Below the pieces are notes generated by a model. It was given only the letters and a program-made list of their open reading frames with translations. It made no database searches and was not told where the DNA came from. From NCBI RefSeq assembly GCF_004010195.1, contig NC_057710.1:153709110-153773109 (forward strand): a DNA stretch of 64,000 nucleotides, read 5' to 3'. How positions within the stretch are numbered: position 1 is the first letter of the stretch; every line of letters begins with the position of its first letter. Source of the stretch: Chiloscyllium plagiosum (taxonomy: Eukaryota). Made by a program: the position numbers and the translations under genes. Below are positions 16,150-64,000 of this stretch, piece after piece.

Positions 16150-16208
16150 CTGTTTAAAAAGAACACAAATCTTCAGTCATTTGGAAATACAACTGTGTTA
16201 TACTGTTA

Positions 16209-16421
16209 TAAAATAAAGAACTGGGAGTGCTGGAGACCTGGAATAAAAAGGGAAACTGCTGGAGAAACTCAGTAGGTCTGGCAGCATCTATGGGGAAATA
16301 AAGAGTTAATGCTTCGAGTCTGGTAACTCTTCTTCAGTTCTGACACCAAATGTTAACACTCTTTTCTCTGCACAGATGGTGCCAGACCTGCTGAGTTTCT
16401 CCCGCAATTTCTCTTTTTGCA
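16209..16421. mobile_element. Fold-back mini-element derived from a PLE 3' end
   Basis: Imperfect inverted arms (gctggagaaactcagtaggtctggcagcatct / agatggtgccagacctgctgagtttctcccgc); 11-bp TSD TTATACTGTTA at 16198-16208 and 16422-16432. Confidence 0.75.
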
Positions 16422-17845
16422 TTATACTGTTACTTTTAAGCAAGCTACTTCTACAAAGTCAGAGTGCGGGGGGAATGCAGAGGAGGGTGTGGGATAAAAC
16501 AAAGAGGAAGTGAGTTCACCACTTGAAATAATGTAATTAATTTAAACAAAGCATAACATGCTTTGTGGATCAGTGGATTCTCAAACTATGGACCCCTCTA
16601 AGTTATATTCCCGGTCTATGCAAACAGATCTCAGACAAAGCAGGGTGAAACACCCATTTGCTTCAGTGCTTCCTGTGCTAGCTAGTAATCCCTGCTGGAC
16701 AGTCAGAATTCCAAAGTTGGAGAGCCTTTAGCCTGCTCAGCTATTTAAAAATCTGGGCTTCACCCTATGTTCATCCAAGATCAGGATGCCACCGCAAAAA
16801 TTCAAGCACAAAGGGGCAAAGTTTCTGCCAAGGCTTCCTGATCATTCTTTGTCACTTTGGTATAAGTGCCAGGAAGTGGTGTCTTCCACCATTTTCTCTG
16901 GCTCTCCTCAGTTTTTGGTGAAATTACAGCAGAGACTGGAGGATCCTGGATCCCTACAAACACCAGACCTGTGTGTGGTAATGCTCATACAATGTACTTG
17001 CTTACCATTCTGTGCAAAAATATACTATAAGCAGAAATATATTAATCTAATGCATTTCAATTTTATTCCAGTGGTTATTTTTAAGCAGCATTAACAGTTT
17101 TAATAATGCACAGTCACCATATGCAAAATAAAAGGAAAGCAAGGAGCATTCAAGGACAAACCAGGGTATTTTAAAAAACATCAGTACTTCACACATGGTT
17201 TGAATTCTATGCTCAACTGAAAAATTAATTCTGCCCCAAATGAACTCATATTACTTTAACACTTTTTTTAAGTGAAAAATTGTGAACTTCTCCACCAACT
17301 CAAAATATTGCAATTGAATGGAATAATATCTTTTCAGCAAAATCACTGGCTTTGCGGTTTATTTTTAGTTTGCATATTAGGAATGCCTTGTTCAGAGCAA
17401 TGTGTTTTGCTGTTGATTCTTTCATAAATATTTTTCTAATTGCCTTATAAACCTGCTCACTCTTCCCGCCAAAGACCAGATCCCATTTGAATGACTCATC
17501 TACATAGCCTGTTTTTCCATCAGTACACCCACTTCTCTTGGCACACGGTTAGTCCTGAACCCTGGAACAGAGTGACATTTGCGAAACAACAAACAGCTGT
17601 GAAAGGCTACAAATGTCTGCAGGAACTCAGAACAGGGAGAATGTTGTTTAACCAGTCTTGAAGTCCACCAAACAAGAACAACATTTTTTGGGACAACTAC
17701 GTGGAATTTCCCGATGGTCTGCTGCGAGTTCTTAAAAACAGGTATTAGTCCTGAAGCAAGAGCATCATTCAAATAGAACGCCCTTTTCTGGACGTCATTT
17801 AGCATGAGAGGAAATGAGGCAGTCCAGCAGAGGAGGTCTGGAACT

Positions 17846-17849
17846 CTCA

Positions 17850-17881
<32 letters not shown>
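17846..17881. repeat. (CT)n(CA)n compound microsatellite
   Basis: Directly visible. Confidence 0.9.
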
Positions 17882-18935
17882 AACGCAGTACTTGATATGC
17901 TGTACTTGCACATATAAAATATCAAAAGAAAGGGAATTGTTTACTTGTAAAACCTAATGTGAAGTTATGGCATTTACCCTGTGGTACATGGCATTGTCTG
18001 TATGAATGTTCAATATTAAGACCATATACGCAGCATGAAATACATCATTTATCATAATTTCTGCAGAATTTCTATTTACACCTGGTGTTGCAGAACAAGA
18101 TTCACCACATTTAAAAACACATCTTATTCAAGTACCAGCCTAGCCTTTCTCATCTTGCCACTTTATTTAGTTTTACCTACTTGGTCATTTCTATTCCAGT
18201 CTCAGCGCTGGCTCTCCTTACCCTTCTCCTTCATACCTTGGCCTTTTCTCTCTCCCGGCCAGGTTTATGATCTCCAGCACCGTTCTGCACGAGTACTCTC
18301 AACCTTCAAAGATGCCAGCGCTGTTCCAAAACACACGTTTCTCCCATGTAGCAGAGGGAAATTCTCCCTGCCCCACTGAACGTTTGTTTCTCGTCCTTGC
18401 CAAGCTGCAAGAACACACATCCTCCTGCAATGCTCTTGCCCCTCCCTATATCCTGCCTGCTGGATTCATACCACAATATCCTTTTTCAAATTAATTTACA
18501 CAGCACTAGTGTTTCTTTCTTCCTTTAATCTTCCCTCCAGTTTACATTCTTCAAGCTTCGTGTCACATAATCATCATCCTTCTTCACTTAACTCATCTGT
18601 TTTATATTTTCTTCAACCTTGGTGGTGTTTTCCTCCCAGGGCTTTGAACCTTCACTTTCGTTTCCAAGCCCAAGTGTCTCATGGTAACCAATTAACGACT
18701 TATTCCTTCACCTCACATGGTTTGGTCTAGATTAAGTACCGCTTTCATTCAGTGAGTGAAAGTAGAGGAACCACATCAAAGCCTTTTTTTTAAAGCACTA
18801 CACAGTAATAGATCATTCAAATCATACACTATAATCGTGCCCACTATCAGTGGGTTACAAGATCGGGCAAACAGCAAGATACAGTGTAACAGGGCAAACA
18901 AGACAACTTATGGAACAACCAATACATTAATGTTT

Positions 18936-19247
18936 GATTAGATTAGATTAGATTCCCTACAGTATGGAAACAGGCTCTTCGGCCCAACAAATCCACACCG
19001 ACCCTCCAAAGAGTAACCCACCCTACATTTACCCCTGACTAATTGACCTAGCACTATGGGCAATTTAACATGGCCAATTCACCTGACCTGCACATCTTTG
19101 GATTGTGGGAGGAAACCAAAGCACCCAGACGAAACCCACGCAGACACAGGGAGAATGTGCAAACTCCACACAGACAATCGCCTGAGGCAGGAATCGAACC
19201 CAGATCCCTGGCACTCCGAGGCATCAGTGTTAACCACTGAGCCGCCC
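18936..19247 (-). mobile_element. HE1-type SINE
   Basis: tRNA-like head with GGTTCGATTCC, same body as 2323-2627, (AATCT)n tail. Confidence 0.85.
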
Positions 19248-19462
19248 TCGCTGCTAATATGTAAATTTAACAAGTACACAAAGCATCAAAAACTGGGCCT
19301 GCCAACCTCCTTTGCATGTATTGAGCTATTGCAGCCTCCGCATGACGTTTAGCCCAAGTTAAAATTGTGTTTTATATTTAATAGCAGAAATCCCACTGCA
19401 GTGGACCGAGCAAAGAAAACAATCCAGTTTAGAATTCTCTAAACTCTGGTGAATGTACATAT

Positions 19463-19596
19463 TGGAGAAAGTGCTTCTGCAGATGCTGGAGATCAGAGTC
19501 GAAAGTGTGGTGCTGAAAAAGCTGGGGCCCTTCAGTCTCCTGCTCATCGGATGCTGCCTGACCTGCTGTGCTTTTCCAGCACCACGCTCTTGACTC
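19463..19596. mobile_element. Fold-back mini-element derived from a PLE 3' end
   Basis: Inverted segments agagtcgaaagtgtggtgctg / cagcaccacgctcttgactct; 13-bp TSD TGAATGTACATAT at 19450-19462 and 19597-19609. Confidence 0.8.
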
Positions 19597-22500: not shown

Positions 22501-22663
22501 AAGGATTCTATGAACTGTTCAATATTGACATTATGTTTAACCAGATACATACAAACTAGGAGCAGGAGTAGGCCATTCGGCCCTTCGGGTCTGCTCCACT
22601 ATTCAATAAGATCATGGCTGATCTTTTCATGGACTCAGCTCCATTATCCTCAGCTCTACAGGA

Positions 22664-23092
22664 TTTCTCGAACTCAGCACCACCTTCCTAAACTACAATC
22701 TTCTTCCTGACCTCTCCGCCCCCACCCCACTCTAACCTATCACCCTCACCTTAACCTCCTTCCACCTATCGCATTTCCAACGCCCCTCCCCCAAGTCCCT
22801 CCTCCCTACCTTTGGTGACCGCTTCACTGAACGTGGAGAAAGTGAGGTCTGCAGATGCTGGAGATCAGAGCTGAAAATGTGTTGCTGGTAAAGCACAGCA
22901 GGTCAGGCAGCATCCAAGGAACAGGAGAATCGACGTTTCGGGCATAAGCCCTTCATCAGGAATCCTGATGAAGGGCTTATGCCCGAAACGTCGATTCTCC
23001 TGTTCCTTGGATGCTGCCTGACCTGCTGTGCTTTACCAGCAACACATTTTCAGCTCTGATCTCCAGCATCTGCAGACCTCACTTTCTCCACG
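22664..23092 (+). mobile_element. Young PLE 3' fragment with an inverted duplication of its end
   Basis: About 22726-22812 is near-identical to 59108-59194; the 3' end matches 59227-59353. Confidence 0.8.
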
Positions 23093-23110
23093 TTCAGTGA
23101 AGCGGTCACC
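22814..23110. repeat. Perfect palindrome, 148-bp arms, 1-nt loop (axis 22962)
   Basis: 22814-22961 is the reverse complement of 22963-23110; no mismatch found by eye. Confidence 0.95.
22960..22997 (+). ncRNA. Minimal type-I hammerhead ribozyme motif (PLE type); mirror copy on the minus strand at 22927-22964
   Basis: GAATC-CTGATGA-A-GGGC-TTAT-GCCC-GAAA-CG-TC^-GATTC: stem I, core box, stem II, GAAA, palindromic ACGT stem III and GUC cleavage triplet. Confidence 0.75.
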
Positions 23111-23373
23111 CAGTCCACCATTAGTTTCCCCAGTCTAGGGGAGACCACATTGTGAGCAGCGAATCTATTAGACTACATTGTGGGAAACGTCGGTAAGGTG
23201 CTGCTTCATTGGTGCGGTGTGGTTGAGCCCTTGGATATTGAGAAAGGAGGACAGAAGTGCGAAACTGTTACACCTTCGGCAGGGGCAAGAGAAGTGCCTC
23301 TGTGGTGTGGGGTGAGGGCGTAATTTTGGGAGTGAATAAAGAGTGAACCAGGGTGTCCTGGCTCTTCCAGAAG
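23093..23373 (-). mobile_element. Older PLE GIY-YIG endonuclease fragment
   Basis: Minus strand reads as a degenerate C-x2-C...IRCSQCGL...GET...LGDRFTE pattern; ends at an N-gap. Confidence 0.6.
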
Positions 23374-23389
23374 NNNNNNNNNNNNNNNN

Positions 23390-25049
23390 AAATTTCTGTG
23401 ACCATATGCATGTCCAGGAGTCTCTTAAATGTCCCCAATGACCCTGCCTCCACAACTGCTGCTGGCAACGCATTCCATGCTCTCACAACTCTCTGTGTAA
23501 AGAACCCGCCTCTGACATCCCCTCTATACTTTCCTCCAACCAGCTTAAAACTATGACCCCTCGTGTTAGTCATTTCTGCCCTGGGAAATAGTCTCTGGCT
23601 ATCGACTCTATCTATGCCTCTCACTGATTGGTTTATAGAATTTCATATCTGAACAGAAATACTTTGTCACCTTCCTCTGCTTCTTAATTAGTGATCGAGT
23701 CAAAAGAAAGCTTAACGAAAAGATTATTATACGCGGATTGAGTTCCTCTGCATACATCAGTCCTGACATCCCAGGAATGAGAGTGAACAAAATGTTGTGC
23801 TGTACAGCTCTATGTCTCCAAGTGCTTCAGCAAAATGGTGGTAATCTGCAATAAAAACAAAACGTGCTGGAGATCCTCAGCAGGTCTGGCAGCATCTGAA
23901 ATGGTGACAGATGCAGGAAACGTTGCAGCCTTGAAGAAGTGTTTAGATGATCACACCAGGCATGTGTTTGATGACCAATATGGAGAAGATGGAGACAGTG
24001 TATTCATACAGTTTTACAACTGAGACTCTGACCCCATTTTATTCTGTATTTCTCTGTGATTCCCTCTTCTCAGAAGTAGGCAGGATTGGGAAGCAGTGGA
24101 GAATGTAAATGATGGCTGACCTTCCTAGTGAGAGGATAGAGGAGAGGAGCAGGGATCCCTTTCTGGAAGAGCCTTGGTGATTGTGAGAGAGTAAATGAGG
24201 GTCACCAGACTGACTCCTGAGATGCGGAGATAGTTAAGGACTGCAGATACTGGAAATCAGAGTCTATACAATGTGGAATTGGGGAAGTGCAGCAGGTCAA
24301 GCAGCATCAAAGGAGCAGGAAAGTTGACGTATTGTGTCATGACACTTTGTCAGTCCTGATGAATAATCCTGACACGGAACATCAACTTTCCAGCCCTACC
24401 TTATTCATGCTGGTCATCAAGCACCTATTTATTCTAGTCCCACGTTCTGGGACACAGCGTGTAAATGATATTGTAGTGCTTGGTGTGATCATCTCAACAC
24501 TTCTTCAAGGCTGCAATGTTTCCTGCATCGGTCACCATTTCAAATGCTGCCCGACCTGCTGAGGATCTCCAGCACGTTTTGTTTTTATTGCAGATTACCA
24601 CCATTTTGCTGAAGCACTTGGAGACATAGAGCTGTACAGCACAACATTTTGTTCACTCTCATTCCTGGGATGTCAGGACTGATGTATGCAGAGGAACTCA
24701 ATCCGCGTATAATAATCTTTTCGTTAAGCTTTCTTTTGACTCGATCACTAATTAAGAAGCAGAGGAAGGTGACAAAGTATTTCTGTTCAGATATGAATTG
24801 AGGTATACAAGATAATGAGAGGCATAGATAGAGTCGATAGCCAGAGACTATTTCCCAGGGCAGAAATAACTAACACGAGGGGTTATAGTTTTAAGCTGGT
24901 TGGAGCAAAGTGTAGAGGGGATGTCAGAGGCGGGTTCTTTACACAGAGAGTTGTGAGAGCATGGAATGTGTTGCCAGCAGCAGTTGTGGAGGCAGGGTCA
25001 TTGGGGACATTTAAGAGACTCCTGGACATGCATATGGTCACAGAAATTT
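23390..25049. repeat. Inverted duplication with ~570-bp arms (23390-23963 / 24477-25049); each arm includes a CR1 3' piece
   Basis: ORFs 23268..23624(-) and 24815..25051(+) are near-identical; 23642-23885 matches the reverse complement of ~24554-24797. Confidence 0.85.
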
Positions 25050-25132
25050 AAGGGTGCATACATGGGGATCAGTGGTCAGCACAACATCATGGGCTGAAGG
25101 GCCTGTTCTGTGCTGTACTGTTCTATGTTCTA

Positions 25133-26455: not shown

Positions 26456-29059
26456 GCACGGATAGCAGATTGTTGGCCATTAATGAAGTCAGTATCTGGG
26501 AGATGGTCCCAGCAAATCAGAGAGGGAACATGATGATAGAACAGAGGGAGAGGCCAGCGCTGGAACTGGTGCTTGGGACTGTGATTCTGAGAGGCAGGGG
26601 TTTGGCTGTTGATGCTACAGCATGAAGATTTGAAAGCTCCTTGCCTAACCTCCCATTATTGACTATTGAATGTTCAAAAAATAGAAGCTAAGTTACAAGT
26701 GTTATTGAAAACACCTCAGAGTGAAAAGGTGGCACTGATCGACATCTCCAGAAAATCAATCAAGAAACAATCATCTATGCCTGTGGAATCGTGCACCATG
26801 AAAACCGCTCAATAAATTGGGCTAGTTTTGTTTATTCTTAAATTATCTCTTAACTGTGTTGTCTGTCATTTGTGGGAATGGTACTGAAACCAAAAGGTTA
26901 TTGGATTTAAGTGACAGACATTGATTAGGTTATTTTGATGTTTAATTTTGCTCTGCAAAAAGTTCCTGTATTGTTAATAAATTGCAATCTGTTTTGTTTA
27001 AGCTACAAGCCTGGTGTCTATAATCAATTATTCATAAAGCCTGGGCTTAGTTATTCAAAGAAGTCTGGTTACAAACCATTCAGGTCATTTTGAAGGGTTT
27101 TGAAGGTGTTAAGTCTGTATACAAATACAAACCTGGGTAGGCTGATTGGATCAGTTGTCTGTGTCCCAGTTGTAACATGTACAACATATATTCAATGTTT
27201 AATAGTTTAAGATACAGACCAACAAACTGTAATATTTTACAATCCTTGCAGAAACACCTTCAATCTCCAGCCTATCAGCACATAAAACACATGCTTTTTT
27301 TTAGACTTGGTTAAATAAGTGCCATTTTTAAAACCAAACCTTTGTAACAATTTCTCTCCCCCATCACAACCTTCTGTTGAATAATGTCCACATTTCTGTA
27401 AATATTGAACCGGTTTACAACTTTAAATATTATTTCATAACTTATTGTATATGATGTGCAATAACTTGTAATACCTGCAATAAATTAGTTTCGCTTTTCA
27501 ATATTATAGTGTTTGAAACAATCTTGGGTCACTTCACATTTATCCAGCAAGTCTGCACTCAGCTAAATCCCTGGCTGAGTGTAATAGCTCAACGAGTTTA
27601 AATTTGTGTTGCTGTGAACAGAAATCTGGATAAGTTGTTCAACACAAGAAATAGTTTCACCTCCTATTTACTGAAACCTGTATTCACACAAACACATGTA
27701 ATTGATTGGTCCATTCAGTTTGCCAACAGTGTGCAAAACAACCTGGAAAACTCAGATGACCAAAACTGCACAATGAGGAAGGGTCATGGATCTGAAATAT
27801 TAACGGTTTTCTCTCCACGGATGCTGCCAGATCTGCTGAGTCTCTCAAGCAATTTTGTTTGTGTTTGTTTCAGGAAAATTTAAACATTGAACATTGGTTT
27901 TCAAGATGCTGACAACAAAAAAAAACAAACCCCTGAAAACAGAAACCTTCCATGCAGTTAGATGACAGCAGAGTGATGAACCGGCTAGCCTGAATTTAAG
28001 CTTCAAATATCCTCAAAAAATGCCTGCAGCAGATGTGCAAAAGATTGCAATACAAATTGTATGTTTTAAAACATGTTTTTATCTAATGTCAGTGCAGGTC
28101 TAGGGACCTAGTTCTAATATTAATGGAATGACTATCTATCTGCTTCCATTCTGTCGACAGAAGAGTTCCTTGCTTCTGAGCAGGGGCAACATAAGCAAAA
28201 TAGTGAAAGTTACAATGAGATTTTCAATTGAACATGCTGGCATGTAAAGACAGACTCCTACCAACTGTCCAAAGGCAATTGATACATAATAGCTGTACAA
28301 GCAAGTTGGAATATTCATAATTACGTTAGTCAGCAAGAGAGACAAATGCAACTTGATTTTGGCATTCACTGTAAAGTTGCAATTTTGCCAGGTCTTGAAA
28401 AATAGTTTCGGAATTTTATCTTATCAGCAAGGAAATTACAACAAACCAGACCTGTCACTCCACCCTTATGAGCAAAAGCAACCTCATATCACAGCACATA
28501 AATCAATATACTGTCAGAACATATCCCTGAGGGCCTTTGTGGCATTTCTATGGACTGTGACCCATCCCACTTTAGCACTGCATGGTTCACCTCCACCCAA
28601 ATACCACACTTCCCAACAATCGGAGATAAACTGGTCTTTCCAGGTACTGGCATATCGAGGGCCACTCCCTGACGATGAACACTATTATTCTGTAAAACAA
28701 CAAAAAGTTAACTTCTGATGCACTTCACCACATTGGCCACTTGTGAAAAAGATGATAGTAGAAACATTTAGGGATCCATAAATTTAGTGGCACAAATATA
28801 TCCATTTCTCCCCTCATTTATTTTTCCACATTTTTAACTCTTCAGTCACACTGCAGGCTAAATTCAGCAACAGGGATGAACTACATTAGTGTATAAAACG
28901 GCAGCTTATGGCATTAACAACACCCATGAATTACCACTCTCGAGGAGTTAGTTCTGTGGTTCTAATACCAGGGAGAGTTTGTGCAGACTAATATAGATGC
29001 TGATAGCAAGACACTCCAAGATGTAGGTCTCTGCTCCCCGTCCTGTACAGAACTGTCCT

Positions 29060-29200
29060 CAGAACAGTTTGTGAGGAAGGGCCCCTAAACCCGAAAGGTT
29101 AACTCTGATTTCTCTCCACAGATGCTGCCAGACCTGTTGAGCTTTTCTAGCAATTTCTGTTTTTATTCCTGATTTACAGCATCCACAGTACTTCCGGTTT
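29060..29200 (+). mobile_element. PLE 3'-end fragment with a decayed hammerhead-like motif
   Basis: gtgaggaagggcccctaaacccgaaaggttaact followed by the cagatgctgccagacctg tail; a similar remnant lies at ~27774-27870. Confidence 0.6.
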
Positions 29201-30247: not shown

Positions 30248-30597
30248 GAAGCATGGTGGCTCAGTGGTTAGCACTGCTGCCTCACAGCACTGGGGACCCA
30301 GGTTTGATTCCGGCCTTGGGCGACCGTCTGTGTGGAGTTTGCACATTTTCCCGCAGTTTGTGTGGGTTTCCTCTGGGTGCTCTGGTTTCCTCCCACACAG
30401 TCCAAACATGTGCAGGTTAGATGAATTGGCCATGAGAAATTCCCCATAGTGTTCAGGGATGTGGAGGCCAGTTGTATTAGTCAGGGAGAATGTAGAGTAA
30501 TAGTACTAGGGGAATGCATCTGGGTGGGATACTCTTCAGAGGGTCGTGTGGACTTGTTGGGCAGAAGGGCCTGTTTCCACACTGTAGGGATTCTTTA
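30248..30597 (+). mobile_element. HE1-type SINE, near full length
   Basis: A box TGGCTCAGTGG, B-box-like GGTTTGATTCC, conserved body, 3' end gtttccacactgtagggattct. Confidence 0.88.
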
Positions 30598-36025: not shown

Positions 36026-36085
36026 CCGCGTTCTGTGTTATGGAGACAGGAGCGGATTCTCAAGGTTTGTGCAGTGCTAGCTTCT

Positions 36086-38223: not shown

Positions 38224-38414
38224 TAAAAGCAAATTACTGCGGATGCTGGAATCTGAAACCAAAAGAGAAAATGCTGGAAAATCTCAGCAGGTCTGGCAGC
38301 ATCTGTAAGGAGAGAAAAGAGCTGACATTTCGAGTCTAACTGACGGGTCAGCTCTTTTCTCTCCTTACAGATGCTGCCAGACCTGCTGAGATTTTCCAGC
38401 ATTTTCTCTTTTGG
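38224..38414. mobile_element. Fold-back mini-element derived from a PLE 3' end
   Basis: 68-bp perfect arms (38259-38326 / 38347-38414), 20-nt spacer; 14-bp TSD ACTTTGAAACTCAA at 38210-38223 and 38415-38428. Confidence 0.88.
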
Positions 38415-42457: not shown

Positions 42458-42677
42458 ATGGAAATGTGTTGCTGGAAAAGCGCAGCAGGTCAGGCAGCAT
42501 CTAGGGAACAGGAGAATCGACGTTTCGGGCATTAGCCTTTCTTCAGGCTGAAGAAGGGCTAATGCCCGAAACGTCGATTCTCCTGTTCCCTAGATGCTGC
42601 CTGACCTGCTGCGCTTTTCCAGCAACACATTTCCATCTCTGATCTCCAGCATCTGCAGACCTCACTTTCTCCTCAAA
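42458..42677 (+). mobile_element. Fold-back mini-element derived from a PLE 3' end, with hammerhead core at 42548-42580
   Basis: 91-bp arms (42456-42546 / 42548-42638, 1 mismatch); 16-bp TSD TATATCAATATGTTAG at 42442-42457 and 42678-42693. Confidence 0.9.
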
Positions 42678-43189
42678 TATATCAATATGTTAGGTAATGG
42701 CGCACGCAGTTGTATGGGTCAGTAAGGTCTACATTCAACCTTTGGTCAATTTGGAAAATGATGCAATCACACTAACACTTCAAAGTTGGTGCAACATTGA
42801 TGGCAACAGAAGGATGTGAGATTGAAGAGACTTTGTTGGACTGTCAATTATATGCTTTCAATGTGCTGTTAAGCTTTATTTTCACTGTTGTCACAACTGA
42901 ACATAATGCAAGTGAATTTCCTCTCCTAGTTATTGTCACGTACTGCTGAGCTTCAGTAACCCAGCCCAGTATCTTTTTTTAAGTGATGCATTGGCTAACA
43001 GAAACTGTAGTTCAGTTTTTGTTTGCATCCTTTACTACTGTCACAGGGGTGGCATTTGAGGATGGAGTTCTGGAAGAGGTAGGTATGGATTTGAGAGGTG
43101 ACGACACGTTCAAACACTTGGAGAGGAAAGGGAGGTAGGAGTTGTTTGCATGGGCAAGGTTAGAATCCCTACAGTGTGGAAACAGGCCC

Positions 43190-44356
43190 AAGTTGAGGGG
43201 GAAGGTAGCTGAGAATGTGATAGGGATAAAGGTGATAGGTCAGAAAGGAGGGTGGAGTGGATAGATGGGGAAGGTGATGGACAGGTCAAGAGGGCGGTGT
43301 CGAGTGGAGGCTTGGGACTGGGATAATGTGGGGGGAGGGGAAATGAGGAAACTGGTGAAATCCACATTAATCCTGTGTGGTTTCCGGGTCCCAAGACAGA
43401 ATATGAGGCGTTCTTCATCCAGACGTCAGGTGGTAAGGGTTTGGCGATGGAGGAGGCCGAGGACCTGCATGTCCTTGGTGGAGTTGGAGTGTTCGGCCAT
43501 GGGGCGGTGGGATTGGGGGCTGCAGGTGTCCCAGAGATGTTCTCTGAAACGATCCGCAAGTTGGCGTCCTGTCTCTCCAGTGTAGAGGAGACCATATCGG
43601 GTGCAAAGGATACAGTAGATGACATTGGTGGAGGTGCAGGTAAATTTCTGTCGGATGGGGAAGGATCCTTTGGGGCCTTGGATGGAGGTGAGGGGAGTGG
43701 TGTGGGTGCAGGTTTTGCACTTCTTGCATTGACAGGGGAAGGTGCTGAGAGTGGGGTGTAGGCTGGTGGGGAGTGTAGGCCTGACGAGGGAGTCGTAGAG
43801 GGAATGGTCTCTCTGGATCTCTGGAACGCTGATGGGGATGGGGAGGGAAAAATATATCTGGTGGTGGGGTCCGTTTCTCGGTGGCAGAAGTGGTGGAGGA
43901 TGATGCGTTGTACGCGGAGGTTGGTGGGAAGGTGAGGACCATATTCTGTTGGGAGGGATGGGGCTCAAGGGCAGTGGTGCGGGAAGTGGAGGAGATGTGT
44001 TGGAGGGCATTGTCGACCACGTGGGAAGGGAAATTGTGACCTGGGAAGTAAGAGGCCATTTGGGAATTTCTAAGGTGGAACTGGTCATCCTGGGAAGAAA
44101 TGCGGTGGAGGCAGAGGAATTGGGAATGAGGGATGACATTTTTACAGGAGGTAGGGCGGGAGAAAGTGTAGTCTAGGTAGCTACAGCAGTCGGTGGGCTT
44201 GTAGTAGATGTCCGTAGTGTGTCGGTCGTTGGAGATGGAGATGGAGATGGAGAGGTCCAGGAAGTGGAGGCAGGTGTCTGGGATGGTCCAGGTGAATTTG
44301 AGGTCAGGGTGAAAAGGTGTTGGTGAAGTTGATGAACTGATCAACCACCTCGTCAA
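43190..44356 (-). mobile_element. Penelope-like element fragment (RT C-terminus + GIY-YIG endonuclease), frameshifted
   Basis: FHPDLKFTW...FLDLSI...TDIYYKPTD and FTCTSTNVIYCILCTRYGLLYTGETGRQLADRFREHL. Confidence 0.9.
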
Positions 44357-44927
44357 CCTCAGTGAAGGAAATAACTGAAGATTGACTTCAGACCTCCCTT
44401 CTCAAATTTAATTAATCCTGCAAACTCTGTTAAAAAGAATCGTGAAGAAAACAAAATCACAACATGAGTTCATTATCAACTTAAAGCTCAGATAACGGAC
44501 ATTCATGCTTGTGTGTGAGATTTTTACGCATTTTCCTAAAATAAAGGCTCCAGAGAGCATGGAAAGAATAAGAGCAGCTGGGTCTATAGGGCACCTTCCA
44601 CAGACACAGGACAGCTCAACGCGCCGTTCAGCCAATGAAGGATTTCTGAAGTGGAGTCACTGTAGAAACGTACAAAAACCTGCGAGCTCACTTGGGCAAC
44701 AAACTTCTCAAACAGTAATGTGATAACGATCAAATAATCCGTTTTTGTAATGCTGACTGCCAGATAAATATAAACACTTTCATACATACAAATCTACGAT
44801 TGATCCTATGATTCTATTAAGACAGATGGCTTGACTCGGATATTATCATGGAAAATAAACAGACAGGCAACAAAACTCTCAAGGTCAAAGCCCAGATTTC
44901 AAGGATGGGTTAAATTGTCTTTAAAAT

Positions 44928-47099: not shown

Positions 47100-48440
47100 G
47101 ATGGTAGACGTAGTTTATATGGATATCAGTCAGGCCTTTGATAAGGTGCTACATGGTAGGCTGCTCTGGAAGGTTAGATCACTTGGAATGGAGGAGGAGC
47201 TGGCAAATTAGATTAAAAAAAAACTGGCCTGATGATAGGAAGCACAGGGTAATAGTGGAAGGGTGCTGGTCAGACTGGAGGCCTGTGACTACCGGAGTAC
47301 CTCAGGGATCGGTGCTGGGCCCATTGCTGTTTGTAATCGATATCAATGATTTGGATGAGGATGTACAGGGCATGATTAGTAAGTTTGCTGATGACACTAA
47401 AATAGTAACATGGACAGTGAAGAAAGTTATCAGAAACCGAGGCAATGCCAAATAGAGTTTAATATAGATAAGTGTGACGTCTTGCATTTTGTCAAGTCAA
47501 ATCAAGGTAAGAGCATCATGGTGAATGGTAGGGCCTTAAGGAGTGTAGTGGAATAGAGCGACCTTGGAGTTCAGGTTCACAATTCTCCGAGAATGGAGTC
47601 CCAGGTAGACAGGGCAGTGAAGAAGGCTTTTGACACACTGGCCTTCATCAGTCAGGGGACTGAGTATAGAAGTTGGGAAGTTATGTTGCAGTTATACAGG
47701 ACATTGGTGAGGCCGCACTTGGTGTATTGTTTTGGTCACCTTGTTATAGGAAGGATGTTATTAAACTGGAAAGAGTGCAGAAGACACTTACAAGGATGTT
47801 GCCAGGACTCAATGGTCTGAATTATAGGGAGAGGTTGGACAAGCACAAGGACTTTTTTTTTTTAAAGCATAGAAGACTGAGGGATGACCTTATAGATCAT
47901 GGAAGGCACGGATAGGATGAATGCACTCACTCAGTCTGTTTCCCAGGGTTGGAGAAATTGATGATTAGAGGGCGTTAGTTTGTGGTTAGTGGGGAAAGAA
48001 TAAAAGGGAACCTGAGGGGCAACGTTTTTACACAGAGGGGGTACACATATGGAATGAGTCGAGAGTGCGGTGCTGGAAAAGCACAGCAGGTGAGGCAGCA
48101 TCCGAGGAGCAGGAAAACTGAGGTTTTGGGCAAAAGCCCTTCATTGATTCTCCTGCTCCTCGGATGCTGCCTGACCTGCTGTGCTTTACCAACACCGCAC
48201 TCTCGACTCTAATCTCCAGCATCTGCAGTACCCACTTTTGCATATGGAATGAGCTGCCAGCAGAAGTGCTTGAGGCGGGTACATTAACAATATTTAAAAG
48301 GCGTTTGAACAAATACATGGATAGCAAAGGATTAGAAGGATATGGGCCAAGTGCAGGGAAATGGGGTTAGTGTGGATGGATTTTGGTCAGCATGAAAAGT
48401 TTTGGCCAAAGGGCCTGCCTCCCTGCTGTAGGACTCCATG
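47100..48440 (+). mobile_element. CR1 LINE RT/3' part, interrupted by a fold-back element
   Basis: [20 protein letters not shown]...SKFADDTK and LVRPHL. Confidence 0.9.
48059..48240. mobile_element. Fold-back mini-element derived from a PLE 3' end, nested in CR1
   Basis: Inverted arms ~48056-48117 / 48148-48209; 13-bp TSD CATATGGAATGAG at 48046-48058 and 48241-48253. Confidence 0.85.
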
Positions 48441-49647: not shown

Positions 49648-50440
49648 AATATTTCCTCCCCACTCCGATCAGCATTCTGCAGAGACCATTCCCTCCGTGA
49701 CTCCCTCATTGGGTCCACACTCCCACCAACCCACCCTCCACTCCTGGCACCTTCTCCTGTCACTGCAAGAGGTGTAAAACCTGCACCCACACGTCCCCCC
49801 TCACCTCCTCCATCGAAGGCTCCAAAGGACCCTTTCACATCCAGCAAAGATTTTCCTGCACATCCATACACGTCATCTACTGTGTCTCTTGCTCTCGATG
49901 TGGTCTCCTCTACAGTGGGGAGACTGGACGCCGACTCATGGAGCATTTTAAGGAACATCTCTGTGACACACGCACTGAACAACCCCACCATGCTGTGGCT
50001 GACCACTTCAACTCCCCCTCCTACTCTGCGAAGGACAGGCAAGTCTTGGGCCTCCTCCACTCTCTGGAGGAAGAACGCCTCATCTTCCACCTTGGGACCC
50101 TCCAACCACACGGCATCAACATCGATTTCATCAGTTTCCTCATTTCCCCATCCCCTACCTTCTCCCAGTCCCAACCCTCCAACTTGGCACCACCCTCTTG
50201 GACTTGTCCTACCTATTCATCTTCCTTCCCACCTATTCCCTCCAATCTATCACCATCATCCTCCATCTACCTATCGCCTTCCCCCCAGCCCCACCCCCAC
50301 CCTCCTATTTATTTCTCAGCCCCCAACCCCCCACGCCTCTATGTTCCTGATGGAGGGCTTATGCCCGAAACATCGACTCTCTCTGCTCCTTGGATGCTGC
50401 CTGACGTGCTGTGCTTTTCCAGCACCACACTCTTTGACTT
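49648..50440 (+). mobile_element. PLE fragment (GIY-YIG + 3' end with decayed hammerhead at ~50343-50380)
   Basis: HVIYCVSCSRCGLLYSGETGR-like frame, EHLCD...VADHFNS; ctgatggagggcttatgcccgaaacatcgac. Confidence 0.85.
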
Positions 50441-50490
50441 TTATTTCAAGTACCATTTGCCTGTAAATTCGAGTCCGATTTGCCTTGGTT

Positions 50491-50574
50491 TTGATGAAGG
50501 AGCAGCGCTCTGAAAGCTAGTGCTTCCAAATCAACCTGTTGGACTATAAACTGGTGTTGTGTGATTTTTTAACT
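50491..50574 (+). mobile_element. Short PLE-type end of a different subfamily, with hammerhead variant
   Basis: TTGATGA-A-GGAGC-AGC-GCTCT-GAAA-GC-TA-GTG followed by aacctgttggactata; same family as 63823-64000. Confidence 0.6.
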
Positions 50575-51930: not shown

Positions 51931-51939
51931 GCTAAGCCA

Positions 51940-55931: not shown

Positions 55932-56562
55932 TGTTATGGACTAGACCAGACCACTCAAAGCATCCTTAAGCAGGCAGCCCAGACCGTAACTTTGCAATTT
56001 GTTTAAGTATATGTACAGAGCAAATTACCCGGAGTAAGTTAGCTAGGGTGACTACCAGGTTTTGAATCAATTTTTGTCTGTTTTATGAATGAAACATGAA
56101 GAACAGAATAAAGAACCCCTACAGAACTCAGTCTGTCCAAACTAGACTTCATTATGCTGCTCCAAATATACACAATAGTCCCAAGATGCAACCCCCCCTT
56201 AAACACAGTAAAAATGAAACAAAGGCTGACAGGTCGAAGTTAGAAGGACAGAAGGAGAGAGAATCTAGCAGCCTGTTTCCACACAGCTCCACTGCTGAAC
56301 TCCCTAACTAGGTCTAGACTGAACTGCTCAGCTCGGGAGCTGGCCACGCCCCCCTGCCTTATGCTGGTTACTTCTGAAAACATAAAGGCTTTGGCCTAAA
56401 GACTCATCTGTTTATGTATAACCAAAAAGGCCTTCCATCTCTATACCAAACCCAGCCGTTTCAGAGCCCGGCCTGTTTATGACCCCTCTGAAAAAAACAT
56501 CAAGGACACAGTATGCTTGAGAAAAGGAACAGCTTTTAGGAAAAAGGACAAGCTTTGGGACA
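55932..56562 (-). repeat. 3' LTR (631 bp), preceded by a polypurine tract
   Basis: TG...CA ends; minus-strand AAGGGGCGGTGGGGGGAGG lies immediately upstream (56563-56581). Confidence 0.9.
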
Positions 56563-58416
56563 CCTCCCCCCACCGCCCCTTAAAAAAAAGAACCATCAAT
56601 ATCAAAAGATGGCTTCATTTTTAAAACCTTTCAAAAACAAAACTGGTTAGTTGTCTAAAACACACATATATATGATACTAACTATACACATGCAAATACA
56701 CAACCACATGCAAATTCAGGCCGTGGTACACCCGTCACCGAATGCCTCTGTATCTCATTCGAGTCTCAATGACGCATTGACAATCACATGTACATTGTCA
56801 CACTGAGCAGCTGCAACAACAAACTCCATCTAAACAGACCGACATTTTTGTCTTTAAATTTCTCCACAAATGTCAATGGGTTATGATCAGTGTATGCGAT
56901 TGTCTCCGATACATTGCTGGTAATATAAACACTGAAATCTTGTCATGCTAACACCAAAGTCTCTTTCTCCAGCACTGAATATTTCTGTTGATGAACATTC
57001 AATTTCCTGGGAAAATATCCGATGGGTCTTTCTATCCTCTCATCATCCTCCTGCAGGAGCACTGCACTGACACCCACATCACTGGCATCGACAGGCTTCA
57101 TGTAATCCGATGTGAGTAATACTGGGGCATTGGTTAACACAATCTTTACCCTTTTGACAGTCCACTGTCCACTGAAACTTCTTGCTTTCTTTTAAACAAT
57201 TCAGTGAGTGGAGCAGACACACTTGCTAAAGTTCGGCACAAACTTTCAGTAAAATCCACTCAATCCCAGCAAATGTAGAACTGCTCTTTTTGTCGACTGA
57301 GAGAAATTCCCTAATTACTTTCATTTTCGCATCCCGTGGGGCCATTGGTTCATGTCCAATAACATGGCCCAGGAAGGTGACTTGAGCTTTGGCAAATTCA
57401 CACTTAGCTTGGTTTACCACCTCGCCTGCCTTCAGAAGTCAATCAAACAGGTCCAATAAATGCTGTAAATGTTCCTTCCCTGAGTGACTATAAATCACCA
57501 GGTCATCAATGGGAACAACACAATTGGGTAACCCAGCAATGACCTTATTAGTCAGTGACTGGAGTGTTTTTCATACCAAATGGCATGACTTTGAACTGAT
57601 ATAATCCATTTGGCGTTACAAAAGCCAAAATTGCCTTTGCTCTCTCTGACAGATACTTGCCAGTGGCCTCTGAGCAAGTCCAACTTAGAAATGTAAGTTG
57701 CTTGTCCCACTTTTTCAACACAGTCCTCCAACCGTGGAATTGGATCAGTCTTTGTCACGGCGTTGACTTTGCGATAGTCCACACATAACCATTGGGTACC
57801 ATCTGGCTTTGGCACCATGACTATGGGTGAGCTCCAGTCACTGTATTATGCCATCTTGGAGCATGCGCTCTATCTCCTCCTGAACCTGTGCCAACTTTAG
57901 AGGATTATGGCTTCAAGGATGTTGTTTATACTGCTGTCATGTGCAATTAGATTAGTACTTCCCAGTTTATTTCTGCACATCTCTCCATGTGGTAGCAATA
58001 ACTCTTTCAGGTCATTTTGATTTTCTTGTGGAAGGTAACTCAATAATTTATCCCAATTTTCGACAACTTCCTCACTGTCCAATTTTATTTGAGGAATGTC
58101 CAATTCAGAATCCTCTGAACTTTGTTCTTCCTTCTGTGCTATAATCATTAACACCTTCTCCTCTTGCTTTCCTTCCCCATCAAAATACCTTTTGAGCATA
58201 TTCACATGACACACTCTGTGAAACTCCTTCCTGTCTGGATTCCTTAGTTCACCTCACTCAATTTCCTCTCAATTTGATAAAGTTCACTAAACGCTGCTTT
58301 TAAAGGCTCACCTGTTATTGGAAGTGACAGCAATACCTTATCCCCAGTTGCAAAATTGCAAATTTGTGACTTCTAATCAACTTCCTGTTTCACTGTATGA
58401 TGTGATACTTTGAAAT

Positions 58417-59356
58417 TTGGGCGACCGAATCAACACGGACATTTACTATAAACCGACCGACTCCCACAGCTACCTAGACTACAGCTCCTCCCACCCTGCC
58501 CCCTGTAAAAACGCCATCCCATATTCCCAATTCCTTCGTCTCCGCCGCATCTGCTCCCAGGAGGACCAGTTCCAAATCCGTACAACCCAGATGACCTCCT
58601 TCTTCAAGGACCGCAATTTCCCCTCAGACTTGGTCGACGATGCCCTCCACCGCATCTCCTCCACTTCCCGCTCCTCCGCCCTTGAGCCCCACCTCTCCAA
58701 CCGCCACCAGGATAGAACCCCACTGGTCCTCACCTACCACCCCACCAACCTCCATGTACAGCGGATCATCCGCTGTCATTTCCGCCACCTCCAAACGAAC
58801 CCCACCACCAGGGATATATTTCCCTCCCCTCCCCTATCAGCGTTCTGAAAAGACNNNNNNNNNNNNNNNNNNNNNNNNNNNNNNNNNNNNNNNNNNNNNN
58901 NNNNNNNNNNNNNNNNNNNNNNNNNNNNNNNNNNNNNNNNNNNNNNNNNNNNNNNNNNNNNNNNNNNNNNNNNNNNNNNNNNNNNNNNNNNNNNNNNNNN
59001 NNNNNNNNNNNNNNNNNNNNNNNNNNNNNNNNNNNNNNNNNNNNNNNNNNNNNNNNNNNNNNNNNNNNNNNNNNNNNNNNNNNNNNNNNNNNNNNNNNNN
59101 NNNNNNNCCCACTCCGGCCTATCACCCTCACCTTGACCTCCCTCCACCTATCGCATTTCCAACGCCCCTCCCCCAAGTCCCTCCTCCCTACCTTTTATCT
59201 TAGCCTGCTGGGCACACTTTCCTCATTCCTGAAGAAGGGCTTATGCCCGAAACGTCGATTCTCCTGTTCCTTGGATGCTACCTGACCTGCTGCGCCTTTC
59301 CAGCAACACATTTTCAGCTCTGATCTCCAGCATCTGCAGCCCTCACTTTCTCCTCC
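58417..59356 (+). mobile_element. Young 5'-truncated PLE nested in the Gypsy integrase region
   Basis: Open frame TDIYYKPTDSHSYLDY...AIPYSQFLRLRRICS; 12-bp TSD ATACTTTGAAAT (58405-58416, 59357-59368); contains N-gap 58855-59107. Confidence 0.92.
59225..59260 (+). ncRNA. Minimal hammerhead ribozyme motif in the PLE 3' end
   Basis: ATTC-CTGAAGA-A-GGGC-TTAT-GCCC-GAAA-CG-TC^-GATT; stem I is short and imperfect. Confidence 0.65.
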
Positions 59357-62280
59357 ATACTTTGAAATGCTGTCTAGCAAACTCTCAAGCTCTATTTAAT
59401 TATTCTCTAAAATTTTACACACAGTCCAAATGGGTGATCTCTGAATTCTGACTTATTAATTTCTCCTTCATCAATTTTAATGGTCCTCTTACTTGATGTC
59501 CACAAATTAATTCAAATGGACTGAATTTGGTTGATTCATTTGTTACATCTCTGATCACAAAAAGTACAAACGGAACTCCCTTATCCCAATCATCTGGATA
59601 ATCCTGACCATCAGCCCTCAATATGGTCTTTAGTGTTTGATGCCATCTCTCTACTGCTTCCTGTCATTCCGGATGGTATGCAGTAGATTTAAATTGCTTT
59701 ATTCCCAAGTTATCCATAACCTCGTTGAATAGTTTGGATGTGAAGTTTGATCCTTGATCTGACTGGATCTCTATTGGTAGTTCGTATCTGGTAAAAAAAA
59801 AGTTCTTCTACAACCCTTTTAACTGTGATATTGTGTAATGGGATTGCCTCTGGAAATCTAGTTGACATATCCATTATTGTTAATAAATACTTATTCCCAC
59901 TTTTTGTTTGAGGTAGGGGACCTACACAATCAATCAAAGTTCCTCAAATGCTGGAATAGGTATTAAAGGTGCAGGTTTTATATCTGCCTGTGGTTTTACG
60001 ATTAGCTGACATGTATGACACGTCTGGCAAAATTCAACTACATCCTTGTGTAGTCCAGGCCAGTAAAAATGTCTTTGTATTTTAGCCTGTAGTTTCCTCA
60101 CCCCTAAATGACCTCCAAGTGGTAGGACATGTACCACCCTACTGGCAAAACAATCTGATGAATCTCTGTCCATTTCTCATCTGCTTGAATGTGTGACGGT
60201 CTGCATCTCCTCATTAAGGCATCATTTGTTCAGTAATAACACAAGGATGCATTCACTCTCCTTTTCTGTAAATGCCTTTTGATACAACTGTTTTAAAGCC
60301 TCATCTTTCTGCTGTAACTCAATAAGCGTAGTAGAGCTAAAGATACTTTCATGTTTACCTATTTGCTCCTGCTCTGTCCCACTTATCTGATCAAAAAAAG
60401 TCACTGATAAAGCTATGTCAGCTTCCTTATCTGGGCCTTTTGATCTCTCCTGCTTCAGCTTGTGCCTCTGTGACCTCGTTAAGACAAAATCTGGGAAAAT
60501 TCCTGGTTAAACATCCTTCATTGTTTCAGTCACCTGCACCTCCACTGGCTTTTCAACTAGAGTAGGCAGCACGCCTACTGGTGAATCAGCGATATCATTT
60601 GCAATGATAAATTGTATTACTGGAGCTAAGAGTTTCTCCAGTACTCCTACCACAAATTCTCCACTCTTCTCTGGACACACTCGCCTCACTTTACACAACT
60701 GAGCACTTTTTGTCTCACCATGAATTCCTGTAACCAGTACCTTTTCTTGCAATAGTCCCCCAGGAGTACACACCTCCTCATCCTTCAGCATTATAGACTG
60801 AGAGGATCCTGAGTCCCTTATTATTGTAACCTCTTTACCTATGCTGCTGGCCTATGTGAATAAACTTTACCCTTGCATGTGTATTTTTTAAGCAGATCTG
60901 ATACTTCCTCCTTAATCAACCTCTGATTCAGCTTTCTAGCTTCCATTGGGCTTTCTGTTACCATGCCAACAAAACTTGCAGACTTGTCCAGTTTTCCGAC
61001 ATCTGGATCTCTCCTAGCCCACCAACACTGTGATTTTGTGTGGCTCACTTTATTACAATGAAAACACTGGAGCTTTTTAACTTCTTTGTCCCCCTCAAGG
61101 GTTTCCTTTTTACCCTGTGGTAAGTTATCCTTATGATCTTCACTGAGACCTACCTTTCCCTTTCCACATAAGGATTTCTCTTTGCCTCAGTTTCTATCCC
61201 CCATGAACTGAGATTGATTCTGGAAGCCAAACCGAGTTTTATGGACTATCAGCCCCTTCAGCTGCTAACCTTGCCATTTTAACTCTGCTCTTCCACATGA
61301 GTTTGCATTACTTCAGGCAGTGAATTTTTATATTCCTCCAACATAATTACCTCTCTAAGGGCATCATAGGTTTGCTCTACTTTTAAAGCTCTTCTCTATC
61401 TATCGAAATCACTCTGTTTGATCCTTTCAAACTCAATGTAGGTTTGACCTGGGTCCCTCCTTAGATTCCTGAAACATTGTCTACAGGCTTCTGGTACAAG
61501 CTCATATGCACTTAAGATGGCTTTTTTACCACCTCACACTCCCCAGATACCGCCTCTGAGTGTGATGTGAAGACCTCACTAGACCTACCTATAAGTTTGG
61601 TTTGGATCAACAAAAGACACACGGGTCACCGGCCACTGCATTTGTTTAGCCACTTTTTCAAATGAGATGAAAAAGGCTTCCACATCTTTCTCATCAAATT
61701 TAGGCAATGCTTGAACATACTTAAACAGTTTCTCATCAGGCTTCCGCCCACCATGGAGTTGCTCATCCTCACTAGACTTGACTTCAGCCGTCATCTCCAG
61801 CCTTTTAAGCTGGCTTTCCTTTATAAGTGTCAGCTTCTGAAGTTCAAATTCTCTCTCTTTTTCTTTCTCTTCTGATAAAGCCCTTCGTTCTTTTTCTTTC
61901 TCTTCTGCTTTTAACTCAAACTGCTTCATTTCTGCTGCCCTTTCCGTATCTCTCACCTCTGACTCAAGCTGCTTCATTTACAATTGGATTTTTGTCATCT
62001 CTGTAGATTCAGATGGTGTTTCCAGCAAGTTTAAATGCTGAGCTGCTGCTGTATTTATCTCACCTTTCCTCACAGAAGCAGGCAGCCCCAATCACAGTTT
62101 GTCTGCTAATTCCTGCTGCTTGGTCTTATTCACCTTTTGCAAAACTTTCAAAGTCACTGCATCCATTTCCAGGAAACTTTTGGCGACTGAAAGAGCCATT
62201 ACTACCCCATTTGTCTACCCAACCAAATCAACATCCGAAATAAAGACATGAGCATCTCCCACTCGCCGTTTAAAGACACA

Positions 62281-62292
62281 GACGAGCCCTCA
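62281..62292 (-). other. Primer-binding site, tRNA-Pro type
   Basis: TGAGGGCTCGTC matches 11/12 of TGGGGGCTCGTC, the start of the tRNA-Pro PBS; directly adjacent to the 5' LTR. Confidence 0.7.
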
Positions 62293-62838
62293 GTAAATGT
62301 ACAGAGAAAATTACCCAGAGTAAGTTAGCCAGGATGACTACTAGGTTTTGAATAAATTTTTGTCTGTTTTACAAAATTACACAAAGAACTCCTACAGAAC
62401 TCAGTCTGTCCAAACTAGACTTCATTATGCTGCTCCAAATACACACAACAGTCCCAAGAAGCAACCCCCCCTTAAACACAGTAAAAATGAAACAAAGGCT
62501 GACAGGTCGAAGTTAGAAGGACAGAAGGAGAGAGAATCTAGCAGCCTGTTTCCACACAGCTCCACTGCTGAACTCCCTAACTAGGTCTGGACTGAACTGC
62601 TCAGCTCGGGAGCTGGCCACGCCCCCCCTGCCTTATGCTGGTTACTTCTGAAAACATAAAGGCTTTGGCCTAAAGACTCATCTGTTTATGTATAAACAAA
62701 AAGGCCTTCCATCTCTGTACCAAACCCAGCCGTTTCAGAGCCCGGCCTGTTTATGACCCCTCTGAAAAAGACATCAAGGACATAGTATCCTTGAGAAAAG
62801 GAACAGCTTTTAGGAAAAAGGATCAGCCTTGAGTGAGA
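62293..62838 (-). repeat. 5' LTR, lacking ~75 bp of the U5 end
   Basis: Aligns to ~56007-56562. Confidence 0.9.
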
Positions 62839-63499
62839 GCATGTTAAAAATACAACCCTAAATTAAATGTTCTGGTTTTGTTATAACTAGGTGGAAATTG
62901 CAACACCTGCGCTTGACAGACCTTCACTTTTAATCTGCTGACATACAAGCAATTTGCTCATGACTTTCAATAACTATTCAAATACTTCATAATATTCACT
63001 TTAAACATACTTATCTGATAAATTATGAAAACATTTGTTGAATATCAAATAACCTAAATATATCAGTCAAAATCAGACTATAAAGCTAATTCTTTACCCT
63101 GGTAATCCCTCACTCTGCAATATGAACACCAACTAAAAGAATGGAGTTTAATTTTGTTATGGAAGTTCTGTTAATCTCAGGATTCTAACTGCATGAATAT
63201 TTTAAATGGCTTCTGAATGAAATGCACTATTTTTGACAAATAAACCAGTGAAATAGTCCAATGATTTGATTAAGTCACTGAAAATGACCTGGAAGGTCAT
63301 AAATTTGACCCTTGGCCTAATCTGACGGTGCGTAACGTGGCACCATAATTGATGCCAACTTTCTGGTTTCGCTTCTTGAGCAAATCACTGAAACATGACC
63401 TCTGTGCGTGGAGACTGGATGTGGGCAGAATTGGGCTAGGTGTGCAATCCACATGAGGTAACAGTTGGCTGACATTCACCAAAGCACACAAATAATTGA

Positions 63500-63628
63500 T
63501 ATAAGAAAATTACTGCGGATGCTGCGGAGCTTTGACAAAGGGTCAGTTAAGACTTGAAATGTCAGCTTTTTTCTCTCCCTACAGATGCTGCCAGACTTGC
63601 TGAGATTTTCCAGCATTTTCTCTTTTGG
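63500..63628 (+). mobile_element. PLE-derived mini-element (same family as 38224-38414) with hammerhead variant at 63528-63567
   Basis: 14-bp TSD ACACAAATAATTGA (63486-63499, 63629-63642); same termini as the 38224 copy. Confidence 0.85.
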
Positions 63629-63822
63629 ACACAAATAATTGAGTTACCAAATCTCAAAACGTTTATTACTTTTATTTACCCAGGATCACAAACAGAGTGG
63701 AGATGATTTCCAAAAGGGAAATCCAGATGAGGTTGACAACAGGAAGTTTTGCTGAAGGTTTTCTACTGAGTAATTGGTGTGATTGACATAAGAGTATGTT
63801 CAAAAAGTGTCCATGAATTCAG

Positions 63823-64000
63823 TCAGAAGTCACACGACATCAGGTTATAGACCAACAGGTGTATTTGAAAAAAACAAGCTTTCGGAGCGCTATTCCTTCA
63901 TCAGGTGAGGTGACTGCACCTGGCTAAGAAGCAGGGCTCCAAAAGCTTATGATTTCAAATTAAACCTGTTGGACTATGACCTGTGTCATGTGACTTCTGA
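63823..64000. mobile_element. Imperfect fold-back element (50491 family); may extend past the window end
   Basis: tcagaagtcacacgaca...tgtcatgtgacttctga inverted arms; the minus strand near 63873-63907 reads CAC-CTGATGA-A-GGAATAGCGCTCC-GAAA-GC-TT. Confidence 0.75.

Follow-up and report, generated by a model that had tools for sequence, protein, structure and literature searches.

The current study concerns a group of short retroelement insertions in the genome of the shark Chiloscyllium plagiosum, located within a window of 64,000 nucleotides (the whole stretch of DNA that was analyzed; assembly GCF_004010195.1, contig NC_057710.1, positions 153,709,110 to 153,773,109 of the forward strand), whose coordinates are used throughout. 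The window DNA is repeat-rich and of the vertebrate intronic type. A preliminary description had proposed that it contains about nine short elements built from inverted 3'-end pieces of Penelope-like elements (PLEs), and such pieces are indeed found at all nine sites. Our verdict is that the pattern is real and belongs to a known kind of insertion, to which the present analysis adds a useful mechanistic refinement regarding the position of the inversion, which lies at the front edge of a minimal hammerhead ribozyme motif.

The PLE remnants of the window provide the frame of reference for these insertions. Remnants with a Cys linker and a GIY-YIG-like end lie at 43110-44401, 49701-50453, and 58417-59356, and, beyond a C-rich stretch, PLE remnants pass into a hammerhead of the minimal type I form, followed by a tail of ~35 nt. 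It is this continuity that sets the sense strand of the terminal sequence, which reads as core CTGATGA, stem II, GAAAC-GTC, and the predicted cut; self-cleavage at the GUC of the stub motifs is likewise a prediction from sequence. The reference copy is a non-inverted, 5'-truncated family A PLE on the forward strand (58417..59356) with an open reading frame (ORF) remnant, an assembly gap, and a 12-bp target-site duplication (TSD). Its minimal type I hammerhead (59229..59261, forward strand) has the core CTGAAGA from 59229, followed by stem II and GAAAC-GTC, with a predicted cut after C59256 and a weak helix I, while its 35-nt tail (59320..59354, forward strand) occupies the interval between an inner (~59319) and an outer (59353-59355) end. 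The family B hammerhead at 63527-63570 is a U3-A8 core variant (TTGACAA) with a good helix I of 5-6 bp, whereas helix I of family A is weak. A descriptor scan of the window identified 7 sites that combine the hammerhead core, stem II, and GAAA, and an Rfam search of the window gave no hammerhead match at E values up to 1, all of its 15 matches falling under the gathering score.

An older PLE 3' end on the forward strand (49701..50453) contains a CxCxxCxxC linker and a GIY-YIG remnant leading into the same hammerhead-bearing end, which it joins at 50345. The closest look-alikes of 49701-50150 carry GIY-YIG (0.96; the family occurs on 13-55% of members), and 58414-58845 resembles clusters of PF26215 HTH_animal with a low recognition score. 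On 43426-44169 the Pfam GIY-YIG match reaches 20 bits, under its 22.6-bit cut-off; the surrounding ORF remnant (43110-44401, reverse strand) lacks a hammerhead-bearing 3' end, and a GIY-YIG-ended ORF contiguous with the terminal sequence was observed for family A/A2 only. The Cys clusters, CHCKRCKTC in the 49701 frame and CQCKKCKTC in the 43426 frame, were compared by eye with the linker given in PMC8557442. A Neptune/Nematis-type linker (CX2-5CxxC before GIY-YIG) is present in the window remnants and, judged on it by eye, the shark elements appear to be Neptune-type PLEs. The remnants in the window are C-terminal only, with no match to a telomerase-like reverse transcriptase core; no homologues of the endonuclease remnant were found at E 1e-10 among 81 candidates, and a PDB search gave no significant match.

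The nine elements derive from families A, B, C, and D, consistent with the preliminary attribution to several subfamilies. Profile searches of the window returned 24 matches for families A/B/D and 4 for family C, and the sole other inverted pair among them is a stub within a large duplication. Six elements are bounded by TSDs. The family D element at 16209..16421 is head-to-head with its tail on the left arm (TSD 16198-16208/16422-16432); its axis lies at ~16337, its arms begin 0 and -4 from the core, and its right arm has an internal deletion. The family A-like element at 19463..19596 combines an inverted tail arm with a sense arm (TSD 19450-19462/19597-19609), such that a 12-nt remnant of the core and stem II is followed by a sense arm running from +31 to the inner tail boundary, with an overlap of just 27 nt. 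The family B element at 38224..38414 carries its tail on the left arm, and its arms begin at stem II (+8/+10; TSD 38210-38223/38415-38428). The family A element at 42458..42677 has its axis at 42547 and arms that begin at -1 and 0 (TSD 42442-42457/42678-42693), the left arm ending at the inner boundary and the right arm bearing the tail. In the family A-like element at 48059..48240 (TSD 48046-48058/48241-48253), the left arm extends from +3 to the inner boundary, whereas the right arm begins at the predicted cut (+28) and carries the tail. Lastly, the family B element at 63500..63628 (TSD 63486-63499/63629-63642) consists of ~25 nt of inverted tail plus a sense body from stem I (-5) to the inner boundary; with an overlap of only 7 nt it forms no hairpin, and is therefore not the fold-back it was previously taken to be.

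The other three are less complete or atypical. An old head-to-head element at 24226..24397 (axis ~24354) has a short right arm that is 72% alike over 39 nt and sits in the spacer of an inverted duplication, and the family C head-to-head element at 63823..64000 (arms 79% alike, axis ~63910) is cut on its right side by the window end. The unit at 22814..23110 is a perfect palindrome (148/148) with a tail on both arms, whose outer 21 nt are inverted flank from an old PLE remnant. It is preceded by a sense, C-rich PLE 3' piece (22727..22813, forward strand) that is 94% identical to 59109-59195 and reaches left to ~22655 by eye. A TSD was sought at both 22814 and 24230, and none was found. The flanks of the 22814 unit are unlike within 22630-23135, the left being a LINE-like piece (by eye) and the right an old antisense PLE endonuclease remnant, which suggests a target deletion, a template switch, or a misjoin. 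The inverted duplication around the 24226 element (23390-23962/24477-25049; 573 bp, 96% alike, with a 514-bp spacer) lies beside an assembly gap, and each of its arms carries a short PLE stub (23835-23900 and 24538-24604); it may be a real duplication or a misassembly.

The outer ends of the TSD-bounded elements are highly regular. The six clean TSDs reported beforehand are all exact and measure 11-16 bp, while pairs of randomly placed points yield an exact TSD of at least 11 bp at a rate of 0.0002 (20000 trials). One outer end of each of the six corresponds to the end of the 35-nt tail and the opposite end to the inner tail boundary; in three of them the inner boundary exhibits 2-3 nt of microhomology with the TSD. 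All six thus present a one-ended tail of 30-40 nt, an inverted 5'-truncated copy, and a TSD. These outer ends match the two sites from which reverse transcription has been shown to start in vitro in an anole PLE.

The inner ends are similarly constrained. Axes had been placed just 5' of the CTGA core at 22962, 42547, ~24354, and ~63910, and this placement holds, as it does for the 16209 element. Overall, an arm begins within -6..+4 of the core in 8 of the 9 elements, a clustering with a binomial P of 9e-8 under a uniform null over -120..+90 and 3e-5 under a null over -6..+90; these values apply to an interval picked post hoc and to arm positions that were set by hand in families B, C, and D. 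Two second arms had been placed at the cleavage triplet. That of the 48059 element does begin at the predicted cut, at 48146, and the right arm of the 19463 element begins at 19536 (+31), 3 nt past it. The second arm at 38347, previously aligned to a GTC-AGCT cut, is better described as a stem II start (GGGTCAG) with a deletion between native GTCAG repeats in the right arm; as a cleaved end it was rejected, since a cleaved 3' product would start with AGCT rather than GTC and the microhomology deletion explains the sequence.

It is evident that this boundary is not specific to hairpins, as it is common to non-inverted copies and head-to-tail tandems. Among the six non-inverted insertions in the window, three begin at the front edge of the hammerhead, all on the forward strand: 27774..27874 (at the core, +1), 29066..29198 (at ~-5), and the family C stub 50491..50570 (at the core). 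Two others reach far upstream, and one, duplicated at 23835/24538, begins well downstream. Further evidence comes from sequencing reads of 4 of 24 public runs, which were aligned to 59109-59408 (family A only; 2776 raw reads for run X21). One of these, X22, had no reads matching 59109-59408, which is not evidence on expression. Counts for run X1 are partial, and the statements below refer to the 18 loose ends listed (811 more exist), to the joints listed (33 more), and to the 12 cut-site joints listed, whose kind is not stated (71 more). In X21, summed depth rises from 246 (59209-18) to 1062 (59229-38), 1489 (59249-58), and 1488 (59259-68), a 6-fold step at the motif front and no change across the cut. 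In all three runs with data the commonest 5' loose end is 59225 (at least 293 in X1, with at least 234 more at 59226; 243 in X13; 184 in X21), the A of the TCATTCC at 59223..59229 on the forward strand, and these counts are ~1/5 to 1/4 of the 3'-end counts among those listed. The loose ends at 59225 match nothing on the stretch, and thus represent non-inverted copies; their consensus in two DNA runs is AT-rich and near-random (agreement 0.31-0.32), resembling 3' flanks. Head-to-tail tandems likewise restart at 59224/59228, in at least 14 and at least 6 contigs of X1.

These data also bear upon two explanations in which the palindromes would be something other than individual insertions. Firstly, the symmetry might be an artefact of collapsed or chimeric assembly, for which one could cite the nearby assembly gaps and the 22814 unit, identical over 148/148, inclusive of flank and devoid of a TSD. 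We find this scarcely credible given the exact TSDs, the asymmetry of the tail, the arm identity of 72-99% in six elements, and the opposite-strand joints, which are present in contigs from two organisms as well as in raw reads (16 reads, 13 starts). On these grounds the inversions are genuine as a class, and the 22814 unit is a candidate inversion only. Secondly, the hairpins had been likened to miniature inverted-repeat transposable elements (MITEs), that is, independently mobile non-autonomous families. They are short, non-coding, and flanked by TSDs, one opposite-strand joint (59225/59236) recurs in X1, X13, and X21, and contigs and reads probably under-represent perfect palindromes. However, that recurrent joint may be one orthologous locus, and a search for identical junctions among the nine window elements found none in common. 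The four opposite-strand joints listed all differ, with no more than 7 contigs each among those listed. Moreover, TSD length ranges between 11 and 16 bp, the termini are unequal, and the tail is confined to one arm and switches sides between elements, as opposed to the fixed-length TSDs and equal terminal inverted repeats of a MITE. Independent mobility is consequently very improbable, and the best reading of this limited sample is that the hairpins are made anew each time.

Why the boundary lies where it does can be addressed from the direction of synthesis. Since reverse transcription reaches the motif from its 3' side, a stall caused by structure would be expected where the stems begin on that side, and copying of a cleaved template would be expected to end at 59257. 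Instead, cDNA stops mainly at -4, beyond the whole motif in the direction of reverse transcription, at the A of TCATTCC. This heptamer fits the initiator consensus, and within 59109-59260 the position 59225 is one of 2 matches to YYANWYY and the sole match to TCA(G/T)T(T/C). The boundary is therefore most simply, and probably, explained by run-off of the cDNA at a putative RNA start. The preliminary description had suggested that the ribozyme structure or its cleaved end sets the stop; the clustering of junctions at the hammerhead is upheld, whereas neither structure nor cleaved end is supported as its main cause, since most cDNA ends 4 nt upstream of the core, past the motif. The absence of a raw-read depth step at the cut and the presence of the same boundary in non-inverted copies and tandems also weigh against both.

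We accordingly regard it as improbable that the ribozyme fold stalls the reverse transcriptase, or that cDNA stops and folds back at a self-cleaved 5' end. The right arms at +28 (48059) and +31 (19463) are what such a process would predict, and joints of 59256/59259 with 59225/59226 recur in both DNA runs (6 of the 12 listed). In opposition, the main stop is 5' of all stems and was reached after the enzyme had passed them, depth is level across 59257 (1489 to 1488), none of the 18 loose ends listed falls at the cut site, arms containing the core cannot derive from a cleaved template, and the 38347 arm is accounted for by its GTCAG deletion. In addition, Frangieh et al. did not find RNA-seq ends at the cut (PMC11167929). 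Two other sources of the boundary were considered and rejected: a second hammerhead cut at the CUC just before 59225, which would leave helices I and III unpaired, and a splice acceptor, given that the preceding bases are TC rather than AG.

Several observations weigh against run-off at an RNA start. The depth step may partly reflect other subfamilies with divergent upstream sequence, as the 59225 consensus of X21 is partly C-rich, and the read evidence is confined to family A. No pile-up of RNA 5' starts or ends was seen in X21, whose library type is unsuited to detecting one. PLE start sites are described within the pseudo-long terminal repeat (pLTR; PMC2377424, PMC8557442), though in D. virilis the start lies 46 nt upstream of an intron of 75 nt that ends right at the hammerhead (PMC2377424), which is ~120 nt further up, so that a start at -4 is not general. 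Furthermore, the right arms of the 48059 and 19463 elements begin at the cut and 3 nt past it, and 59256 or 59259 occurs in 7 of the 12 cut-site joints listed. A minor class of cut-site or cleaved-template products (48059, 19463, and the joints at 59256-59259) may also exist. As a separate observation, a T-rich TTTTATCT at 59193-59200, 32-25 nt upstream of the proposed RNA start, lies at the distance typical of a TATA box but matches one poorly, and the sense piece preceding the 22814 unit ends here.

Based upon these features, we place roughly even confidence in a model in which every element arose from a single, separate insertion by a Neptune-type PLE, through two-ended target-primed reverse transcription on a short RNA leader. 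The element RNA would start 4 nt upstream of the hammerhead core, at the initiator-like site. The PLE protein would nick both target strands and, judging from in vitro work on the anole PLE, cDNA synthesis would start at two sites bracketing the ~35-nt tail, ~95 and 130 nt into the RNA. One target end carries the outer-site cDNA and the other the inner-site cDNA within a TSD of 11-16 bp. Both cDNAs would presumably run off the RNA 5' end and be joined with 0-2 nt of microhomology, and it is this run-off that places the axis just before the core; the ribozyme would mark the axis only because it lies at the start of the RNA. An early stop of the outer cDNA could yield an inverted tail plus body, as in the 63500 element, whose geometry is that of L1-type twin priming and is paralleled by similar joints (59229/59318 and 59236/59319) in contigs of two organisms. 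The ends, the TSDs, and the 5' pile-up are observed, whereas the RNA start and the numbers of primers and templates are what we infer from them. Biochemical precedent is provided by PAc, the Poseidon element of Anolis carolinensis. Its protein nicks and extends both strands, and its two starts lie on either side of the tail, close to the ORF start; the protein is a predicted dimer and works without hammerhead cleavage (PMC11167929).

Two of the elements, however, are explained less readily by two primers. The arms of the 42458 element share five non-reference variants, which fits the copying of one cDNA and would require one source or later homogenization under a two-primer model; the 22814 unit, with its inverted flank and two tails, is better explained by a single primer with fold-back. 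In fold-back self-priming, which we view as possible but distinctly less probable, one cDNA would run to the RNA 5' end, snap back on a stem of 1-2 bp, and copy itself, after which the hairpin would be resolved by the element's endonuclease at the inner tail boundary, so that just one arm keeps the tail; the axis would again be set by the RNA start. The 22814 unit includes a copy of its own primer flank (21 nt) and then resumes upstream PLE sequence, both arms of the 42458 element have private variants in common, and the junctions of the 16209, 22814, and 24230 elements can be drawn as 2-bp snap-backs. Published precedent also exists, as palindromic head-to-head junctions have been read as self-priming (PMC3846280) and the tail has been ascribed to endonuclease resolution (PMC8557442). 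Conversely, fold-back cannot yield the 63500 element, which lacks the overlap, and in the 16209 snap-back as drawn the copied arm would bear a tail that the first cDNA lacks. Likewise, the inner boundary is the counterpart of a reverse-transcription start already shown for PAc (PMC11167929), and the 22814 unit may reflect misassembly or template switching that occurred later at the DNA level. The two-primer and fold-back routes may both operate.

The architecture itself is already published, with respect to head-to-head pLTRs, palindromic junctions, one-sided tails, and TSDs as well as solo and opposite-strand minimal hammerheads. Inverted pLTR-plus-tail insertions of endonuclease-containing PLEs likewise exhibit a head-to-head terminal repeat, a junction palindrome, a one-ended tail of 30-40 nt, and a TSD (PMC3846280, PMC8557442, PMC2377424), but here both arms are stubs without an ORF and their 5' ends pile up at one base before the core. 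PAc resembles the shark elements in its hammerhead near the RNA/ORF start, its two tail-bracketing starts, its AT-rich targets, and the nicking and extension of both strands (PMC11167929), while the shark elements have a Neptune/Nematis-type Cys linker. The solo hammerheads of truncated PLEs are similarly minimal type I motifs without a real helix III, dispersed in very many copies and including the U3-A8 core variant found here in family B; their opposite-strand pairs lie 100-700 bp apart (PMC4209133), whereas those of the window abut directly, and cleavage of the latter is predicted from their motifs. In L1 twin priming the second target end primes internally to create an inverted segment within a clean TSD, as in the 63500 element, but in L1 the two segments have little overlap and the internal site is variable (PMC11702581), whereas here the site is fixed and the arms overlap by 60-90 nt. 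Non-LTR retrozymes are also non-coding, PLE-derived, and equipped with a type I hammerhead, yet they consist of head-to-tail tandem units (bioRxiv 10.64898/2026.07.22.740005), while the window elements are single or head-to-head; no retrozyme-type head-to-tail units occur in the window, and head-to-tail tandems of the same PLE family exist in read contigs. We found nothing on shark PLE palindromes or on single-base 5' clustering before the hammerhead in the literature within reach, which mostly excluded subscription papers. A DNA pattern scan of viral contigs gave 0 matches. Five metagenome matches, absent from a first scan, were dropped as chance likenesses, being alike only around the pattern and lacking a hammerhead or tail.

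The wider value lies in a genome with very many minimal insertions whose ends coincide with one of three set positions (RNA start, inner start, and outer start), which provides a direct test of twin priming versus fold-back and of in vivo cutting by the hammerhead. The route to PLE inverted repeats and the one-sided tail is described as still undefined in PMC8557442. A broader proposal, which we consider doubtful at present, is that the PLE reaction as it occurs in vivo is preserved in the stubs to the single base, with a dimer priming both target ends at the tail-bracketing starts, an RNA beginning at an initiator 4 nt upstream of the hammerhead, and a small share of arms, those starting at the cut site, made from self-cleaved templates. 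If true, it would jointly explain inverted pLTRs and the one-sided tail, and would constitute genomic evidence of in vivo cutting by a minimal PLE hammerhead. On a practical level, such hairpins are prone to annotation as MITEs or microRNA precursors; the Rfam microRNA matches here were under threshold.

Among the remaining features of the window, 59400-62800 (reverse strand) appears by eye from its translation to be a decayed coding remnant resembling an LTR retrotransposon (ORF 61585-61977). Proline-rich host exon frames occur at 6833-8110 and ~11050-11150, both on the reverse strand, and resemble SH3D19, with no Pfam match.

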